Below, in pieces: positions 1,442-32,362 of a DNA stretch of 64,000 bases. Source of the DNA: Escherichia phage vB_EcoM_SYGD1; sequence record MW883059; one strand, written 5' to 3'. The stretch's first letter is position 1. Each line of letters begins with the position of its first letter. Below the pieces are notes generated by a model, which did no database searches, was not told where the DNA came from, and was given only the letters and a program-made list of their open reading frames with translations. Both the position numbers and the translations under genes were made by a program.

Positions 1442-1721
1442 ATATAAATCCGACTTTGATGTTAATATTCACCGTGGTACGTTTTGGGGAAATTACGTCG
1501 GTAAAGATGCTGGCAGCCGGGAGGCTGCCATTGAATTATTCAAAAAAGATTTTATACGTCGAATTAAATCCGGAGAAATAACTAAAGCACATTTAGAGCC
1601 TTTACGTGGAATGAGGCTAGGATGCACATGTAAACCAAAGCCGTGTCATGGTGATATAATAGCTCATATAGTTAACCGATTGTTTAAAGACGATTTTCAA
1701 GTTGAGGACTTATGCAATTAA
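1395..1721 (+). CDS. DUF4326-like protein (position of T4 nrdA.1)
   Basis: 108 aa with [14 protein letters not shown] and [15 protein letters not shown] motifs, the pattern I associate with DUF4326. Confidence 0.65.
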
Positions 1722-3976
1722 TTAATGTTATCAAAAGTAGTGGTGTTTCTCAGAGCTTTGACCCGCAAAAAATTATTAAAGTTTTATCTTGGGCAGCTGA
1801 AGGAACATCAGTAGATCCTTATGAATTATATGAAAATATTAAATCTTATCTCCGTGATGGAATGACAACTGATGATATTCAGACTATTGTCATTAAGGCC
1901 GCTGCGAATTCTATTTCGGTTGAAGAGCCTGATTATCAATATGTAGCTGCACGTTGTTTAATGTTCGCTCTTCGTAAGCATGTTTATGGGCAGTATGAAC
2001 CACGTTCATTTATTGACCATATTTCTTACTGTGTAAATGAAGGTAAATATGACCCTGAATTATTGTCAAAATATTCAGCAGAAGAAATTACATTTTTAGA
2101 ATCAAAAATTAAGCACGAGCGGGATATGGAATTTACTTATTCCGGGGCGATGCAATTAAAAGAAAAATATCTAGTTAAAGATAAAACCACTGGTCAAATT
2201 TATGAAACTCCACAGTTTGCATTTATGACTATTGGAATGGCATTGCATCAAGATGAACCTGTTGATAGATTAAAACATGTTATCCGTTTTTATGAAGCGG
2301 TATCTACTCGACAGATTTCATTACCAACTCCTATTATGGCTGGTTGCCGTACTCCAACTCGGCAGTTTAGTTCATGTGTTGTTATTGAGGCAGGCGATTC
2401 ACTGAAGTCTATCAATAAGGCTTCTGCTTCAATTGTTGAATATATCTCTAAACGCGCTGGAATTGGTATTAACGTTGGTATGATTCGTGCTGAAGGTTCT
2501 AAGATTGGCATGGGTGAAGTACGCCATACTGGTGTTATTCCTTTTTGGAAACATTTTCAGACTGCTGTTAAATCATGCTCACAGGGTGGAATTCGTGGCG
2601 GCGCTGCTACTGCTTATTATCCTATTTGGCATTTGGAAGTTGAAAATCTTCTTGTTTTGAAAAATAACAAAGGCGTAGAAGAAAACCGTATCCGTCATAT
2701 GGATTATGGCGTCCAGTTGAATGATTTGATGATGGAACGTTTTGGAAAGAACGACTACATTACTTTGTTTAGTCCGCATGAAATGGGTGGCGAGCTTTAT
2801 TATTCTTATTTTAAAGACCAAGACCGTTTCCGCGAATTATACGAAGCAGCAGAAAAAGACCCTAATATTCGCAAAAAGCGTATTAAAGCCCGTGAACTAT
2901 TTGAATTACTCATGACTGAACGATCAGGAACAGCAAGGATTTATGTGCAGTTCATTGATAATACGAATAATTATACTCCGTTTATTCGTGAAAAGGCACC
3001 TATTCGTCAGAGTAACTTGTGTTGTGAAATTGCTATTCCAACAAATGATGTGAATAGTCCTGATGCTGAAATTGGATTGTGTACTCTCTCTGCATTCGTA
3101 CTAGATAATTTTGACTGGCAAGACCAAGATAAAATTAATGAATTGGCAGAAGTTCAAGTTCGTGCTCTTGATAATCTGTTGGATTACCAAGGATATCCAG
3201 TTCCTGAAGCAGAAAAAGCTAAAAAGCGTCGTAACCTCGGTGTAGGTGTTACCAACTATGCAGCTTGGCTGGCAAGTAACTTTGCTTCTTATGAAGATGC
3301 TAATGATTTAACACATGAACTATTTGAGAGATTACAGTATGGACTCATTAAAGCATCCATTAAGCTCGCAAAAGAAAAAGGACCTTGCGAATATTATTCA
3401 GACACTCGTTGGTCTCGAGGCGAATTACCTATCGACTGGTACAATAAAAAGATTGACCAAATCGCAGCTCCAAAATACGTTTGTGACTGGTCGGCGCTGC
3501 GGGAAGACCTTAAGCTCTTTGGCATCCGTAATAGCACATTATCAGCACTTATGCCATGTGAGTCATCTTCCCAAGTTTCTAACAGTACAAACGGTATCGA
3601 GCCTCCACGTGGACCAGTCTCTGTTAAAGAATCAAAAGAGGGTTCCTTTAATCAAGTCGTGCCCAATATTGAGCATAACATAGACCTATATGATTATACA
3701 TGGAAATTAGCTAAGAAAGGTAATAAACCTTATCTTACGCAGGTAGCTATTATGCTGAAATGGGTATGTCAATCAGCTTCAGCGAATACATACTATGACC
3801 CGCAGATTTTTCCAAAAGGAAAGGTTCCAATGTCAATAATGATTGATGACATGTTATACGGATGGTATTATGGCATTAAAAATTTCTATTATCATAATAC
3901 CCGTGATGGTTCTGGTACTGATGATTATGAAATAGAAACTCCTAAAGCCGACGATTGTGCAGCGTGTAAATTGTAA
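1712..3976 (+). CDS. nrdA: ribonucleoside-diphosphate reductase large subunit (class Ia)
   Basis: 754 aa; GAGGA RBS; active-site NLCCEIA; C-terminal redox Cys pair ...ADDCAACKL. Confidence 0.95.
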   Translation: MQLINVIKSSGVSQSFDPQKIIKVLSWAAEGTSVDPYELYENIKSYLRDGMTTDDIQTIVIKAAANSISVEEPDYQYVAARCLMFALRKHVYGQYEPRSFIDHISYCVNEGKYDPELLSKYSAEEITFLESKIKHERDMEFTYSGAMQLKEKYLVKDKTTGQIYETPQFAFMTIGMALHQDEPVDRLKHVIRFYEAVSTRQISLPTPIMAGCRTPTRQFSSCVVIEAGDSLKSINKASASIVEYISKRAGIGINVGMIRAEGSKIGMGEVRHTGVIPFWKHFQTAVKSCSQGGIRGGAATAYYPIWHLEVENLLVLKNNKGVEENRIRHMDYGVQLNDLMMERFGKNDYITLFSPHEMGGELYYSYFKDQDRFRELYEAAEKDPNIRKKRIKARELFELLMTERSGTARIYVQFIDNTNNYTPFIREKAPIRQSNLCCEIAIPTNDVNSPDAEIGLCTLSAFVLDNFDWQDQDKINELAEVQVRALDNLLDYQGYPVPEAEKAKKRRNLGVGVTNYAAWLASNFASYEDANDLTHELFERLQYGLIKASIKLAKEKGPCEYYSDTRWSRGELPIDWYNKKIDQIAAPKYVCDWSALREDLKLFGIRNSTLSALMPCESSSQVSNSTNGIEPPRGPVSVKESKEGSFNQVVPNIEHNIDLYDYTWKLAKKGNKPYLTQVAIMLKWVCQSASANTYYDPQIFPKGKVPMSIMIDDMLYGWYYGIKNFYYHNTRDGSGTDDYEIETPKADDCAACKL

Positions 3977-4707
3977 TGAATTATCAAAAAATCTATAATG
4001 ACCTAATTTCCCGAGCTCAGGCTCGGGAACATTTATCCGAGTATAAAGAGACACATCATATAGTCCCTAAATGCATGGGAGGTTCTGATGATAAAGAAAA
4101 TTTAGTTGAATTAACAGCTAGAGAACATTTTATAGCGCATCTATTACTATGCAAGATAAATGAAGGCCATTTTGGTCTTGCCTCTGCGTTAACGTTAATG
4201 GCAACAGATAAAGCTGGTAATAGAATTAATAACAGATTGTATAGCTTGCACAGAAAATTATTTGCTAAAGCTAATTCTGATTTCTTTAAGAAATATTGGA
4301 AAAATAATCCTCATCCTAGAGGAATGTTAGGCAAGCATCATAAAAACGAAACTAAACAACATGTATCAAACGTGAATAGGTATGCATGCCCATCTATCGA
4401 AATACATAAATTCTCATTAGATGGGGATTTCATAGAAACCTTTCACTCTATTGCCGCAGCGTCCAGGTCAGTTAATGGAAACGGGTCAAATATCAAATAT
4501 TGTGCTGAGGGTAAATTTCAATATGCCTATGGATTTCGATGGGCATATCAACTTGATGCAAAGTTTGACAAAATACAACCAAGAGATTATAAAGGAATCC
4601 GCGGTAAGAAATGGATTAATAATGGAAGTGAATGCACGCTTATAGGTAAAGATGATATTATACCGCCAGGTTGGAAACGCGGCAGAATTTTAAAGAGGAA
4701 AAATTAA
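3976..4707 (+). CDS. HNH homing endonuclease, free-standing (mobE-like, between nrdA and nrdB)
   Basis: 243 aa; start overlaps nrdA stop (TAATG); HNH motif HHIVPKCMGGSDDKENLVELTAREHFIAH. Confidence 0.8.
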   Translation: MNYQKIYNDLISRAQAREHLSEYKETHHIVPKCMGGSDDKENLVELTAREHFIAHLLLCKINEGHFGLASALTLMATDKAGNRINNRLYSLHRKLFAKANSDFFKKYWKNNPHPRGMLGKHHKNETKQHVSNVNRYACPSIEIHKFSLDGDFIETFHSIAAASRSVNGNGSNIKYCAEGKFQYAYGFRWAYQLDAKFDKIQPRDYKGIRGKKWINNGSECTLIGKDDIIPPGWKRGRILKRKN

Positions 4708-5885
4708 TGTCTACAGTTTTTAATACAAATCCAGTTGATGTTTTAAAAGAACCTATGTTTTTTGGTTCAGGTCTTGGTATTGCGCGTTATGATATTCAAC
4801 GTCATAAAGTTTTTGAAGATTTGACCGAAAAGCAATTGTCGTTTTTCTGGCGGCCTGAAGAAGTAAACTTAATGATGGATGCTGCGCAGTTTAATAAGCT
4901 TCCTCAGTATCAGCAAAATATTTTTACTAACAACCTGAAGTATCAATCACTTTTGGATAGCATTCAGGGTCGTGCGCCGTCTGCTGTACTTATGTCATTA
5001 ATTTCAGACCCAAGCCTTGATACATGGGTTGCTACATGGACTTTTAGTGAAACTATTCATAGTCGTTCATATACTCATATCATGCGAAATCTTTATACTG
5101 ATCCGTCAAAGGTATTTGATGAGATTGTATTAGATGAAGCTATTATGAAACGTGCTGAATCCATTGGACGTTATTATGATGACGTTCTGATTAAAACTCG
5201 TTATTGGGAAAACGCTAAAGCTGCTACAGCATTTAAATTTGAAATTAATGCAGACGAAGACGTTATTGAAGATGCTATTGAGCATGAAATGTATTGGAAA
5301 CGTGAACTAATGCGCTCTCTTTACCTCTGCCTGCACGTAATCAACGCATTGGAAGCTATTCGTTTTTATGTATCTTTCGCATGTACCTTTAACTTCCATA
5401 AAAACATGGAAATCATGGAAGGTAATGCCAAGATTATGAAGTTCATTGCGCGTGATGAGCAGCTTCATCTTAAAGGCACCCAATATATTATTCGTCAGCT
5501 TCAATCCGGTACTGATGGCGATGAATGGGTTAAAATTGCTCAAGAGTGTGAACAAGAAGCAGTTGATATTTTCATGGAAGTTAACCGCCAAGAAAAAGAT
5601 TGGGCAGTTCATTTATTTAAAGATGGAGATGTTCCTGGATTAAATACAAATAGCATGTGGAGCTTTATTGATTACTTAACTGTATCTCGTATGAAACAGT
5701 GTGGTCTTCCATGCCCAATTACCGATGCTCCGGTTAAACATCCATATCCTTGGATTCGTGAATACCTTAATTCTGATAATGTTCAATCCGCGCCGCAAGA
5801 AGTAGAACTGTCATCTTACCTTGTAGCACAGATTGATAATGATGTTGATGATAAAGTTATGATGAGTTTTAAAAAATATTTTTAA
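4707..5885 (+). CDS. nrdB: ribonucleotide reductase small subunit, uninterrupted (no intron)
   Basis: 392 aa from ATG 4707 (MSTVFNTNPVDVLKEPMFF...); continuous ORF typical of NrdB. Confidence 0.9.
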   Translation: MSTVFNTNPVDVLKEPMFFGSGLGIARYDIQRHKVFEDLTEKQLSFFWRPEEVNLMMDAAQFNKLPQYQQNIFTNNLKYQSLLDSIQGRAPSAVLMSLISDPSLDTWVATWTFSETIHSRSYTHIMRNLYTDPSKVFDEIVLDEAIMKRAESIGRYYDDVLIKTRYWENAKAATAFKFEINADEDVIEDAIEHEMYWKRELMRSLYLCLHVINALEAIRFYVSFACTFNFHKNMEIMEGNAKIMKFIARDEQLHLKGTQYIIRQLQSGTDGDEWVKIAQECEQEAVDIFMEVNRQEKDWAVHLFKDGDVPGLNTNSMWSFIDYLTVSRMKQCGLPCPITDAPVKHPYPWIREYLNSDNVQSAPQEVELSSYLVAQIDNDVDDKVMMSFKKYF

Positions 5886-30097: not shown

Positions 30098-30113
30098 AAG
30101 GGCCGAAGCCCTT
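30098..30113 (-). promoter_or_regulatory. GC hairpin between the HNH gene stop and the uvsW.1 RBS
   Basis: AAGGGC-CGAA-GCCCTT overlapping the HNH stop codon. Confidence 0.4.
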
Positions 30114-30804
30114 ATAAATTAACTGTTTTTCTAAGTATTCTTAGTTTGTACATTGATAATCCAGTAGCTTTAGAAGCATCTTTCATGCATTTATACTTAA
30201 CACCATTTACTTCTATAGGTTTAGCAGCTGGGTTATTAGCTCCTGAATTATCTGGCATGTTATCTTTAATTTTCTGAATAGATTTAGCGGAATGTTTCCT
30301 TCCATACATGCCATTATTTTTACCTGATTGATTGATAGAATGCAATCTTTTAGCTTCTTCAGTCCATTTTGTTGGGTTCATTCTTTTAGTTTTACTAATT
30401 TTACTTCCCCACGTAATTGGACGATTTTTCATGAGTTTTGACATATATTGTTTATGTTCTTCCGTATGGTGTTTTCCGTAAAATGGATTACCTTCACCTG
30501 ATTGAAGTTTTGCCATTTTACGACGTTCCCAGGCGTAAGATTTATTAACGTGTCTTTCATGAGTATTTGAATTCATTCCCATACATATAACGGCTTTAAT
30601 TATACCGTAATGGTTTGGATGAATTTTAGCTAAAAGTTTATGAGCTATAAAATGCTCTTCAGCTGTTAGTTCTACCAAATTACACTTATCATCTGTACCA
30701 CCCATACATCTAGGAATTATATGATGAGTTTCAGTGTATCCATTAAGGCGAGCCCGATTCTGGGCTCTATTAATTAAATTATCATATATTAATTTATAAT
30801 TCAA
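30112..30804 (-). CDS. HNH homing endonuclease, free-standing, inserted between uvsW and uvsW.1; TTG start
   Basis: 230 aa; HNH motif HHIIPRCMGGTDDKCNLVELTAEEHFIAH; TTG start 7 nt after GAGG and overlapping uvsW TGA. Confidence 0.75.
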   Translation of the reverse strand: MNYKLIYDNLINRAQNRARLNGYTETHHIIPRCMGGTDDKCNLVELTAEEHFIAHKLLAKIHPNHYGIIKAVICMGMNSNTHERHVNKSYAWERRKMAKLQSGEGNPFYGKHHTEEHKQYMSKLMKNRPITWGSKISKTKRMNPTKWTEEAKRLHSINQSGKNNGMYGRKHSAKSIQKIKDNMPDNSGANNPAAKPIEVNGVKYKCMKDASKATGLSMYKLRILRKTVNL

Positions 30805-32312
30805 AGTTTAACCTCTTTCATCACATAATTAAACTTCTCATCAGCATAACGCTGAATACGATCAAGTCCATGTTTTAAAAGATAGTTTAAATGCGAGTAT
30901 TTTTTAGAAGATGTTTTTGATTTAGAAACTACGCCCGCGTCATCTATGAGGTCCCAGACTGTTGCGATTGTTTTAGAACCATGCTTACGTAATACGCGAC
31001 CTATTGTTTGCAATACAATAATTTTAGATTTAACGCCGTGCGCTAAAACAACGTGATGCAGATTTTTAACTGAAATACCAGTAGAAAATACACCATAACT
31101 AGCTACTATAATTATTCCTTTACCGTTTTCAGCTAAGGTTTTCATTATGTTTCGAGTTTCGGTATCAACTTCCCCTGATACGTAATAAACTTTATCGTAT
31201 TCATTTTTAATTAAATCGAAAATAGCTTTACCATGTGATACATGCTTAAACATGACAAAAGCGTTTTCATCTTTTTGCGCAAGTTTAATAGCTAATTTAG
31301 CGATCCATTTATTTCTTTTACTGAGCCCAGTAATAATTTTTATTTCTTCTTGGTAAGTTTTTCCCTTTAATTTAGTAGTGAACTCATCAGGATAACGAAG
31401 AAAAATACTATTAATTTTTAACTCAGTTACTTGTCCATCTTCCATTAATTTAGAAGTCGTTACTGGCTTAAATATTTCACCAAACATTCCAACATACTGC
31501 ATGATATTAGCTTTGCCATCACGTAATGAACCTGATAGACCAAATTTGAACATGCAGTTATTTAAACCTGATATAATAGATGAAATACTTTTTCCTGTAG
31601 CAAGATGGCATTCATCATTCATCATCATTCCAAATTGTGAAAACCATTCTTTTGGTTGTTTTACTACAGTTTGCCATGTACCAACAATTACCGGTGCATC
31701 ATTTTTATATTTATCATCTTTTGATGCTCCGCCACCAATTTTCTTTATCATTGCATGACTGAATAAACGATAATCAACAAAGTCATCAGCCATCTGAGTT
31801 GTCAGAGCAGTTGTTGGAACAATGATAAGAATTTTACCTTCATAATTTTCCAAATAATAACGTGCAAGCAAAGCTTGAATTAAAGATTTACCTGCGGATG
31901 TTGGAAGATTAAGAATTCTACGACGATTAACTAATCCTTCGAACACTGCATCTTTTTGATACCAATGCGGTTCAATTCTTTTATTTCCTGAATAGATTTC
32001 TAACTTAGAAAGCCATTCATCAAAATCTTTTCTTGATAATTCTTCTTTTTCGTTAATTTGTGGGTCAATCCAGGCTTTATAGCCAAAGTTATCACAGAAC
32101 TTTTTAATTTGCCCGACTAAGCCGAACGGAAGAAGGCGATTATAATCTAAAAGACGGATTCGTCCATCCCAGTGACCATATTTGTATTTCGGATTAAAAC
32201 GATACCCATCAGCTTCAAAGCTAAAGAAATCACGGAGTTCATGAAATGTACTTTCTTCACAATCAATTCTCACGTGACTAAAATCATAAAAATGTACTTT
32301 AATGTCAGTCAT
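30801..32312 (-). CDS. uvsW: UvsW DNA/RNA helicase (SF2)
   Basis: 503 aa; MTDIKVHFYDFSHVRIDCEE...; Walker A LPTSAGKS, DExH-like NDECH. Confidence 0.9.
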   Translation of the reverse strand: MTDIKVHFYDFSHVRIDCEESTFHELRDFFSFEADGYRFNPKYKYGHWDGRIRLLDYNRLLPFGLVGQIKKFCDNFGYKAWIDPQINEKEELSRKDFDEWLSKLEIYSGNKRIEPHWYQKDAVFEGLVNRRRILNLPTSAGKSLIQALLARYYLENYEGKILIIVPTTALTTQMADDFVDYRLFSHAMIKKIGGGASKDDKYKNDAPVIVGTWQTVVKQPKEWFSQFGMMMNDECHLATGKSISSIISGLNNCMFKFGLSGSLRDGKANIMQYVGMFGEIFKPVTTSKLMEDGQVTELKINSIFLRYPDEFTTKLKGKTYQEEIKIITGLSKRNKWIAKLAIKLAQKDENAFVMFKHVSHGKAIFDLIKNEYDKVYYVSGEVDTETRNIMKTLAENGKGIIIVASYGVFSTGISVKNLHHVVLAHGVKSKIIVLQTIGRVLRKHGSKTIATVWDLIDDAGVVSKSKTSSKKYSHLNYLLKHGLDRIQRYADEKFNYVMKEVKL

Positions 32313-32341
32313 GTCTAAATACCATGTAATAAATATATCTA

Positions 32342-32349
32342 TATTTATA
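32342..32349 (-). promoter_or_regulatory. late promoter (TATAAATA on - strand) for uvsW
   Basis: TATTTATA on + strand 30 nt upstream of uvsW ATG. Confidence 0.5.
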
Positions 32350-32362
32350 CTGAGGAAATATT

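Follow-up and report, generated by a model that had tools for sequence, protein, structure and literature searches.

The window, by which we mean the whole 64,000-nucleotide stretch of DNA analysed here, comes from Escherichia phage vB_EcoM_SYGD1 (MW883059), a T4-like phage of the genus Tequatrovirus, and it contains two open reading frames for HNH homing endonucleases of the Mob family, both standing where an earlier note on the same DNA had placed them. Gene A (3976-4707, + strand) encodes a protein of 243 amino acids and is located between nrdA and nrdB, and gene B (30112-30804, - strand) encodes one of 230 amino acids and is located between uvsW and uvsW.1. The ATG of A overlaps the stop codon of nrdA by 1 nt (TAATG), and the TTG start of B overlaps the stop codon of uvsW (CTTTGA). 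With such a start codon B could be weakly expressed or decaying, yet its reading frame is intact and conserved. Both proteins match PHROG 655, 'homing endonuclease' (E=2.4e-57 for A and 4e-61 for B), and their relatives, annotated as mobE or homing endonuclease, were seen; more than 1000 phage records contain relatives. Shigella phage ESh29 has the A protein with 100% identity, and RB10, in which the gene is annotated as mobE, has it with 99.2%; A is the allele of the RB10 type at the nrdA/nrdB position of mobE. The B protein is 99.6% identical in phage W143, in which it is named 'putative mobile endonuclease E', and is annotated as "homing endonuclease" in dozens of phages.

Catalytic cores, hairpins and DNA-binding tails

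Each of the two is a free-standing open reading frame between conserved phage genes; the flanking host genes are intact on both sides, and neither frame lies within an intron or an intein. Each protein starts with an HNH domain of the ββα-metal type having the conserved His/Asn/His residues, and residues 24-61 form its core in both cases (4045-4158, + strand, in A; 30622-30735, - strand, in B), with the H27/H28 pair, N42, H51 and H55. The catalytic H28, N42, H51 and H55 are found in both proteins and are invariant in both subfamilies (57- and 60-sequence alignments); the residues listed as invariant in the A subfamily alignment are G36, N42, E50, H51 and H55, and those in the B subfamily alignment are H28, N42, E50, H51 and H55. 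Scores with Pfam HNH are just under the gathering threshold (GA) of 21.4 bits for both, 20.4 for A and 16.7 for B, and the homologues P0018 and P0036 exceed this threshold. In AlphaFold models of the whole proteins (pLDDT 89.5 for A and 85.6 for B), the core of A consists of strands 25-28 and 43-46 and helix 48-61, with a pLDDT of about 95, and that of B of strands 24-28 and 43-47 and helix 48-61.

A GC-rich hairpin is found in the 5′ end of each coding region. In A, it has a UCCCGAGCU-CAGG-CUCGGGA-type stem (4008-4029, + strand; MFE -16.7 kcal/mol, z=-2.34), its position is that of the published intragenic terminator of mobE, for which about 30% termination has been reported in T4 (PMC2988022), and its sequence is the same as in T4 mobE. 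A simple consensus terminator scan did not call this hairpin because its U-tract is weak. The hairpin in B, GAGCCC/GGGCUC (30750-30767, - strand; MFE -15.6 kcal/mol for a 75-nt fragment, z=-2.42), occupies the same codons, those for RAQxR, and is also detected by the terminator scan, on the opposite strand.

Behind the HNH domain each protein has its own C-terminal region presumed to bind DNA. In A, this begins with a NUMOD3-like helix, GKHHKNETKQHVSNV (residues ~119-137; 4330-4386, + strand), which was found by BLASTP and hhalign, is modelled as a helix at 124-137 and is the final segment aligning with B; in the homologue P0018, the corresponding segment attains the gathering score of NUMOD3. 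A ββ-helix-turn-helix module of the NUMOD1 family follows (residues ~143-190; 4402-4545, + strand), with a Pfam score of 25.9 bits (E=1.1e-5), above the GA of 22.8, and with strands 143-146 and 152-156, helices 159-165 and 170-177, and strand 187-190 in the model (pLDDT ~96). The protein ends with an extension (4546-4704, + strand) composed of a linker, a β-hairpin (GKKWINNG...IPPGWKRGR; strands 211-215 and 220-224 in the model) and a basic tail, which is kept across the A subfamily and has no counterpart in B; the last ~55 residues of A matched no Pfam family. The tail of B carries two NUMOD3 motifs, one at residues ~104-126 (30427-30495, - strand; Pfam NUMOD3 in two stretches, E=1.3e-13; model helix 115-126), which aligns with the NUMOD3 of A in BLASTP and hhalign, and the other at residues ~160-182 (30259-30327, - strand; Pfam NUMOD3, again in two stretches; model helix 173-182). 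An I-TevI-like ββ-helix-turn-helix occupies residues ~195-227 (30124-30222, - strand; Pfam I-TevI_DNA-bd E=0.03, below GA), with strands 197-199 and 202-204 and helices 207-214 and 218-227 in the model.

Alleles, junctions and empty sites

How does A compare with the well-known resident of the same locus, MobE of T4? Both genes sit at the same position between nrdA and nrdB with the same 1-nt overlap with nrdA, the 5′ hairpin or terminator sequence is common to them, and their first ~57 residues are 91% identical, the first 170 nt being 97% identical in DNA. When the window was compared with T4 and slur04 by blastn, a mosaic breakpoint zone appeared at 4145-4163 (+ strand): upstream of it, the 3′ end of nrdA and the first 170-188 nt of the gene show 94-97% DNA identity to T4 and slur04, whereas downstream of it no DNA similarity was detected before nrdB. 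At the protein level, the BLASTP match between A and T4 MobE is limited to residues 1-104/1-105 with 62% identity, and residues 58-110 are only about 20% identical, DNA similarity being absent after codon ~57. T4 MobE has 141 amino acids; its intact relatives have 213, carry NUMOD3 twice and end in a Cys-rich stretch, in contrast to the 243 amino acids of A with its NUMOD1 and β-hairpin extension. In T4, the gene at this locus is split into mobE and nrdB.1, and there is evidence that these two are a split form of the 213-amino-acid protein. A thus shares with T4 MobE the position, and not homology over the whole protein including the tail; as judged from these alignments, it is a positional allele of T4 mobE with a different tail. 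The junction at codons 57-63 between the window gene and that of T4 and slur04 looks like a natural in-situ tail swap, which would retarget the nuclease, and the clearest tail swap here is the one between alleles at nrdA/nrdB, not that between A and B. It is conceivable, though we regard it as rather doubtful, that the 5′ ~170 nt encoding the HNH core, including the hairpin, serves as a homology arm for tail exchange among mob genes of Tequatrovirus.

The neighbouring host genes carry traces as well. The last 33 nt of nrdA (3944-3976, + strand) are shared with the mobE-positive alleles of T4 and slur04, and 8 of the 15 differences from a HEG-less allele in the final 577 nt of nrdA cluster in them. 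On the other side, nrdB in the window has a sequence of the HEG-less type at the region nicked by T4 MobE, without T4-type polymorphisms. The known target of T4 MobE, nt 114-131 of nrdB, was considered as the target of A and rejected, given that the tails differ and nrdB in the window is HEG-less-like there; it is not transferable to A because A shares just its first ~57-105 residues with T4 MobE.

At the other locus, the last 18 nt of B, AAAACAGTTAATTTATAA (30112-30129, - strand), are identical to the final 18 nt of uvsW in phages without B, and this identity, in a comparison with T4 and Nami by which the junction was defined, marks the insertion point of B inside the last codons of uvsW. UvsW ends with ...MKTVNL* in T4 and Roth16 versus ...MKEVKL* in the window, and the insert supplies a surrogate end of uvsW. 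The 3′ end of uvsW beside B (30801-31000, - strand) is locally diverged from the HEG-less alleles: uvsW is mostly 95-99% identical to T4 and Nami, but over the final ~200 nt identity falls to 84/76/57% and 82/76/67%, respectively. This segment is a candidate for either the target or a co-conversion tract. We also considered B as the cause of the uvsW/uvsW.1 split. This was rejected, since T4 and the five further T4-like genomes compared all have the split, with or without an endonuclease gene (PMC1524935), as the Nami and T4 loci also show.

Both genes are present or absent among relatives more than 95% identical, and the empty sites are precisely defined. At the A locus, a 3400-5300 query was covered to 80% or more by 57 of 826 records; A is absent from most Tequatroviruses, and empty sites have a 51-nt intergenic spacer in place of the gene. 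At the B locus, coverage of the query reached 80% or more in 113 of 898 records, and T4, Nami and most relatives are without B. Such presence and absence among close relatives is as expected of homing endonuclease genes, and flanking host-gene divergence adjoins each insertion, at the 3′ ends of nrdA and uvsW. Full-length relatives of A adjoin nrdA in phages of Escherichia, Shigella and Salmonella, with one record under the label Pseudomonas, those of B adjoin the UvsW helicase gene in phages of Escherichia, Salmonella and Klebsiella, and matches to the N-terminal part alone adjoin many other genes. This fidelity of full-length relatives to their loci supports targeting specified by the tail.

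Relationship between the two genes

The earlier note had described two enzymes with a near-identical N-terminal module, about 70% identical over the first 60 residues and then diverging completely into unrelated C-terminal halves. The figure of 70% is right: 43 of the first 61 residues are identical (70.5%). "Near-identical" is too strong, however, since the DNA is 71.5% identical (nt 2-165), only 33 of 57 third codon positions agree, and no 30-nt window of the alignment exceeds 80% identity. Nor do the proteins diverge completely after residue 60. In BLASTP, residues 1-133 of A pair with residues 1-124 of B over 134 columns, 48% of them identical (E=1e-35, far beyond chance), and the part beyond residue 60 contributes 22 identities in 74 columns, including the GKHHxxExK NUMOD3 motif common to both; profile-profile alignment extends over 1-140/1-131 (E=2e-48). 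The part common to A and B is therefore ~130 N-terminal residues long: an HNH domain, with ~70% identity over residues 1-61, and after it a helical region and the first NUMOD3, with ~30% identity. The boundary proposed at residue 60 has to be moved accordingly. The ~70% identity over the HNH residues is held by catalytic constraint. A tblastn search of the window with the module detected no third copy.

As to the tails, the view that they are unrelated is borne out in that the last ~100 residues show no significant direct similarity between the subfamily profiles (hhalign, E=0.24), and fails in that the module types are the same. The NUMOD3 plus helix-turn-helix unit of A (114-170) is colinear with the second such unit of B (163-218) with an E-value of 1.3e-6 and a probability of 91% (hhalign), a match that is seen only when these two units are paired, comes mostly from the short NUMOD3 motif and aligns the helix-turn-helix part at low confidence. 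Each tail also matches TIGR01453 in its DNA-binding part, with a score under the cut-off, and both AlphaFold models contain a ββ-helix-turn-helix unit. The two tails thus assemble the same NUMOD3/HTH modules in different ways: A has NUMOD3 followed by a NUMOD1 helix-turn-helix and a β-hairpin with basic extension, a layout like that of I-HmuI, and B has two NUMOD3 motifs with an I-TevI-like helix-turn-helix. A varied number and order of NUMOD modules behind one nuclease domain was reportedly described by Sitbon and Pietrokovski in 2003. Of the NUMOD families, A reaches the threshold of NUMOD1 (PF07453) and B that of NUMOD3 (PF07460), with two copies, and nothing essential differs from the description of these families. 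The general idea of the earlier note, one cleavage module with different DNA-binding tails, is correct, and so, as far as sequence comparison can indicate, is its corollary that the tails would direct each enzyme to its own locus.

I-HmuI (PDB 1u3e) is the top fold match of whole A (Foldseek probability 0.99, 185 columns, E=2.8e-3) and likewise has an N-terminal HNH domain, helices and a C-terminal helix-turn-helix; with 12% identity and low TM-scores (0.26/0.33), the resemblance seen is one of architecture. I-HmuI is intron-encoded, in Bacillus phage SPO1, while A is free-standing and has the extra β-hairpin extension. By phmmer against PDB sequences, A had just one weak match, to the HNH of a maturase from a group II intron (E=0.13); I-HmuI was recognized through the fold search alone. 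For B, the DNA-binding domain of I-TevI (PDB 1i3j) is the top Foldseek match of the tail (probability 1.00, 73 columns, 27% identity, rmsd 3.7), and phmmer places B 157-216 on 1i3j from residue 39 (E=0.0058); both have a minor-groove helix of the NUMOD3 type and, after it, a helix-turn-helix. I-TevI, an intron endonuclease of T4, has a GIY-YIG catalytic domain whereas B has an HNH domain, no Cys cluster or zinc finger like that of I-TevI was detected in the B tail, and the score of B with I-TevI_DNA-bd (PF20987), 14.7 bits, is below the cut-off of 27.

We favour, at a probability of about 0.85, the reading that A and B belong to the T4 Mob family as free-standing homing endonuclease genes and are old paralogues, not recent copies of each other. 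Could the drop in identity at residue ~60, from 70% to 30%, have instead arisen by recent copying, in which the 5′ HNH segment was duplicated or gene-converted between the genes at nrdA/nrdB and uvsW? The first 57 residues of B are indeed slightly closer to N-termini of the mobE type from Tequatrovirus (0.72) than to its own orthologues elsewhere (0.64), and RAQxR with the hairpin is found in both subfamilies among their Tequatrovirus members, RRKASP or RKAS being the sequence in most orthologues elsewhere. Yet a bootstrap of this affinity gave a difference of 0.087 with 4.8% of replicates at or below zero and an interval including zero, and N-terminal identities of 0.52-0.72 are general among Mob-family members, within as well as between subfamilies, so that the step is expected from catalytic constraint alone. 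As the DNA of A and B is no more than 71.5% identical without any near-identical patch, recent conversion between them was rejected as unsupported, and we consider copying of this kind very improbable; that DNA identity, together with N-terminal identity within the family background, speaks for old paralogy. The RAQxR/hairpin signature is a weaker signal that the core could evolve in concert between loci. A related sequence, KAQxR, is present in some distant relatives, P0015 and P0018.

Old paralogy also has to be weighed against truly independent C-terminal halves, joined to one nuclease domain at residue ~60 by domain shuffling. Such shuffling is documented in other families of phage homing endonucleases (PMC10448857), a real junction exists at codons 57-63 between the allelic genes at nrdA/nrdB, the Pfam families of the tails differ (NUMOD1 vs NUMOD3 and I-TevI_DNA-bd), and their last ~100 residues give no significant profile match. 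However, the alignment of A with B past residue 60 through a common NUMOD3, the colinearity of A's NUMOD3/HTH unit with the second one of B, the matches to the same TIGR01453 region and the same ββ-helix-turn-helix in both models make it unlikely. We think equally little of the idea that A or B, or both, have become immobile, either as remnants or as genes kept for exclusion of competitor markers or regulation of neighbouring genes. Decay does occur at the A locus, as the mobE/nrdB.1 split of T4 shows, B has its TTG start, and the tight nesting of each gene in an operon of essential genes would suit domestication; against this, neither frame is shortened, the catalytic residues and tail modules are all intact in both, each gene is 95-100% identical across ~50 phage genomes, and even the truncated MobE of T4 still promotes homing (PMC2790892).

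Proposed mobility and meaning for the Mob family

In the Mob proteins of T4, a conserved HNH domain is combined with a C-terminal DNA-binding domain specific to each protein. T4 MobE is a homing enzyme that nicks nrdB (PMC2790892; PMC2988022); in mixed infections, mobE shows super-Mendelian inheritance, for which the HNH motif is required (PMC2790892). From work on T4 MobE, I-HmuI and I-TevI, the following steps may be proposed for A and B. In a mixed infection, the extended tail would bind a long site near the position of its own gene in a relative without that gene, and the HNH domain would then nick or cut DNA nearby. Repair by recombination, with the gene-bearing genome as template, would transfer the gene and the markers flanking it to the recipient. 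Low expression is probably maintained through translational coupling to the gene upstream, by way of TAATG at nrdA/A and the weak TTG in CTTTGA at uvsW/B, and through the hairpin in the 5′ coding region.

A and B are ordinary selfish nuclease genes that have been annotated before, and the way they are built, with a NUMOD/HTH tail particular to each gene behind a conserved HNH head, is already known from the published description of the Mob family. Beyond the correct annotation of two intact Mob-family genes in the window, the significance is thus small. By-products of the analysis are the sharp natural junction at codons 57-63 between allelic endonuclease genes with different tails at nrdA/nrdB, the mapped insertion of B within the last codons of uvsW, and the split of T4 mobE/nrdB.1. 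None of the three alters the current understanding of these genes; they may be of some interest for the evolution and engineering of endonucleases.

Extent of the sequence shared by two HNH endonuclease genes

Gene A (3976-4707, + strand) encodes 243 aa and is flanked by nrdA (1712-3976) and nrdB (ATG at 4707), with an overlap of 1 nt on either side. Gene B (30112-30804, - strand) encodes 230 aa; it stands between uvsW (30801-32312) and uvsW.1, and the TTG with which it starts (30802-30804, - strand) overlaps the uvsW stop codon (CTTTGA). The same TTG start over the uvsW stop (CTTTGA) is found for gene B in phage F26 (L007 2501). Around both genes the DNA is 95-98% identical to that of hundreds of Tequatrovirus (T4-like) phage genomes. 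Shigella phage ESh29 has a protein 100% identical to the A protein, and the product of an RB10 gene annotated mobE is 99.2% identical to it; the B protein, annotated as "homing endonuclease" in other phages, is 99.6% identical to one that phage W143 lists as "putative mobile endonuclease E". Both fall in PHROG 655 ("homing endonuclease"; E=2.4e-57 for A and 4e-61 for B) and have the HNH residues H28, N42, H51 and H55, which do not vary in alignments comprising 57 and 60 relatives. The general Pfam HNH model scores both slightly below its threshold, which is passed by the homologues P0018 and P0036. AlphaFold models (pLDDT 89.5 for A and 85.6 for B) predict the same N-terminal elements: helix 3-16, strands at ~25-28 and ~43-46 that with helix 48-61 make up a beta-beta-alpha-metal core, helix 66-75, a long helix at ~90-105 and, after a linker that is poorly ordered, a NUMOD3 helix (A 124-137; B 115-126).

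How far does the likeness between A and B extend? The earlier note, which had the coordinates and sequences of both genes right, described near-identical N-terminal catalytic modules of roughly 70% identity that diverge completely after residue 60 into unrelated C-terminal halves. The percentage stands, as 43 of residues 1-61 are identical (70.5%) and the overall match is far above chance (BLASTP E=1e-35). "Near-identical" is overstated: over nt 2-165 the DNA identity is 71.5%, every 30-nt window is at or below 80%, and 33 of 57 third codon positions agree. These figures also speak against recent copying of the HNH module between A and B within the genome, of which the comparison of N-terminal identities across subfamilies (relatives of A and relatives of B) gives a weak hint. 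Since N-terminal identity in the Mob family of free-standing HNH homing endonucleases runs from 0.52 to 0.72 both within and between subfamilies, the A-B value lies at the upper end of an ordinary background set by catalytic constraint. A third copy of the module is absent from the window.

Nor is divergence complete after residue 60. By BLASTP, A 1-133 aligns with B 1-124 at 48% identity (22 of 74 columns past residue 60), ending in a GKHHxxExK motif common to both, and profile-profile comparison of the subfamilies aligns A 1-140 with B 1-131 (E=2e-48). Beyond this, A has a NUMOD1 beta-beta-helix-turn-helix (residues 143-190; Pfam E=1.1e-5, above threshold) and ends in an extension of ~55 residues with a conserved beta-hairpin (GKKWINNG...IPPGWKRGR), for which no Pfam family was matched; its best solved-structure match is the whole of I-HmuI (probability 0.99, 185 columns). 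In B, short helices after the first NUMOD3 lead to a second NUMOD3 (helix 173-182), and then comes a beta-beta-helix-turn-helix (197-227) that matches the DNA-binding domain of I-TevI (Foldseek probability 1.00, 27% identity; phmmer E=0.0058). When the last ~100 residues of A and B are compared directly by profile, the match is not significant (E=0.24); the NUMOD3-helix-turn-helix unit of A (114-170) is colinear with the second unit of B (163-218; E=1.3e-6, probability 91%), and both tails score below cut-off against TIGR01453 ("group I intron endonuclease"), within its C-terminal, DNA-binding part. Truly unrelated tails are contradicted by these alignments, and "unrelated" was the wrong word. 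It is to be noted that the unit alignment draws mostly on the short NUMOD3 motif, and we therefore do not claim homology of the helix-turn-helices as proven. The tails are the same module types differently arranged, with one extra NUMOD3 segment in B and the C-terminal extension in A.

Probable tail exchange between alleles at nrdA/nrdB

From the nrdA 3' end into the endonuclease gene, the DNA of the window is 97% identical to T4 (through nt 170 of the gene) and 94% identical to slur04 (through nt 188); similarity to both ends abruptly at 4145-4163 inside A and resumes only at nrdB. Likewise, protein identity between A and T4 MobE drops from 91% (residues 1-57) to ~20% (residues 58-110). The allelic endonuclease genes thus have one HNH-core 5' segment joined to different tails, with a recombination junction at codons 57-63. 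This junction is the clearest support for the idea in the earlier note of one cleavage module on different tails, but it concerns nrdA/nrdB alleles of different phages and not the A/B pair itself. Because the tails differ beyond codons 57-63, the T4 MobE target in nrdB (nt 114-131) cannot be assumed for A; at 4820-4840 (nrdB nt 114-135, the T4 MobE nick region) the window has the sequence type of phages without the endonuclease gene, not that of T4 or slur04.

Elsewhere in nrdB (4707-5885), which has neither the group I intron nor I-TevIII, both present in T4, a small replaced patch at 5224-5240 (nt 518-534) shows 10 mismatches in 17 nt to UPWr_E4 and slur04, turning ADIEYQK of NrdB into AATAFKF. 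As for T4 itself, mobE (141 aa) and downstream nrdB.1 (83 aa) together (NC_000866 139716-140416; compared with L005 677-1318) correspond to one intact 213-aa protein of slur04, HY03 and many other phages, with two NUMOD3 motifs and a Cys-rich end. As NrdB.1 is its C-terminal 83 residues, the reference T4 mobE appears to be a split version of this gene.

Insertion polymorphism and expression

The nrdA/nrdB locus has three states, namely the A type (query coverage of at least 80% in 57 of 826 records), the T4/slur04 type and an empty site with a 51-nt spacer. Compared with an empty-site allele, the last 577 nt of nrdA show 15 differences, 8 of them in the final 33 nt. Full-length relatives of A adjoin nrdA in several phage genera; those matching its N-terminal part alone lie beside many different genes.

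Gene B is absent from T4 and phage Nami, and of 898 phage records that match its locus only 113 reach 80% or more coverage of the query. In phages without B, uvsW ends in ...ATGAAAACAGTTAATTTATAA, and the hairpin GGGCTTCGGCCC comes next. The 18 nt that end uvsW in these phages form the end of B in the window (30112-30129), and uvsW of the window (30801-30821) ends in a diverged substitute (...KEVKL* vs ...KTVNL*). By this exact junction, B lies within the last uvsW codons and brings a replacement end. Identity of uvsW to T4 and Nami, 95-99% over most of the gene, is 57-84% in the 3' ~200 nt beside the insertion (30801-31000), as would be expected close to a homing target or a tract of co-conversion. 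Klebsiella phage Roth16 has a 69%-identical orthologue at the same junction with the usual ATGA start/stop overlap. B as creator of the uvsW/uvsW.1 split was rejected, as the split is conserved regardless, in T4 and five other T4-like genomes compared (PMC1524935). Between uvsW and inh (32313-32362) the window has no segE-like GIY-YIG gene, one of which stands there in the T4 record.

Thus, A and B show the signs of mobile genes: their HNH residues are intact, their tails are of the NUMOD/helix-turn-helix kind, their insertion is polymorphic among relatives, and the junctions are precise and the flanks diverged. Decay or domestication of either was considered, but both reading frames are intact and conserved.

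In T4, nrdA and mobE overlap by start and stop, suggesting translational coupling, and the mobE 5' end contains an intragenic terminator hairpin (Edgell, Gibb & Belfort 2010, PMC2988022). This GC-rich hairpin is unchanged in A (4008-4029, + strand; -16.7 kcal/mol, z=-2.3). B, too, has a GC-rich hairpin, which differs in its stem sequences but lies at the same codons (RAQxR; 30750-30767, - strand). RAQxR occurs in Tequatrovirus members of both subfamilies, and RRKASP stands there in most orthologues from other phages; the likeness could come from selection for the hairpin or from exchange between paralogues.

By analogy with T4 MobE, I-HmuI and I-TevI, the extended tail would, in a mixed infection, bind a long site near the insertion point of a genome without the gene, the HNH domain would nick or cut nearby, and recombinational repair would transfer the endonuclease gene with adjacent markers into the recipient. 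Expression kept low by coupling to the gene upstream, and in B also by the TTG start, may limit damage to the carrier genome. Mob proteins are described as a conserved HNH domain with a protein-specific C-terminal DNA-binding domain (PMC2790892; PMC2988022), and domain exchange is known for another phage homing endonuclease family (PMC10448857). The observation in the earlier note is thus confirmed in part, and its interpretation, supported in part and correct in outline, was already known; what A and B display is a textbook property of an already annotated gene family.
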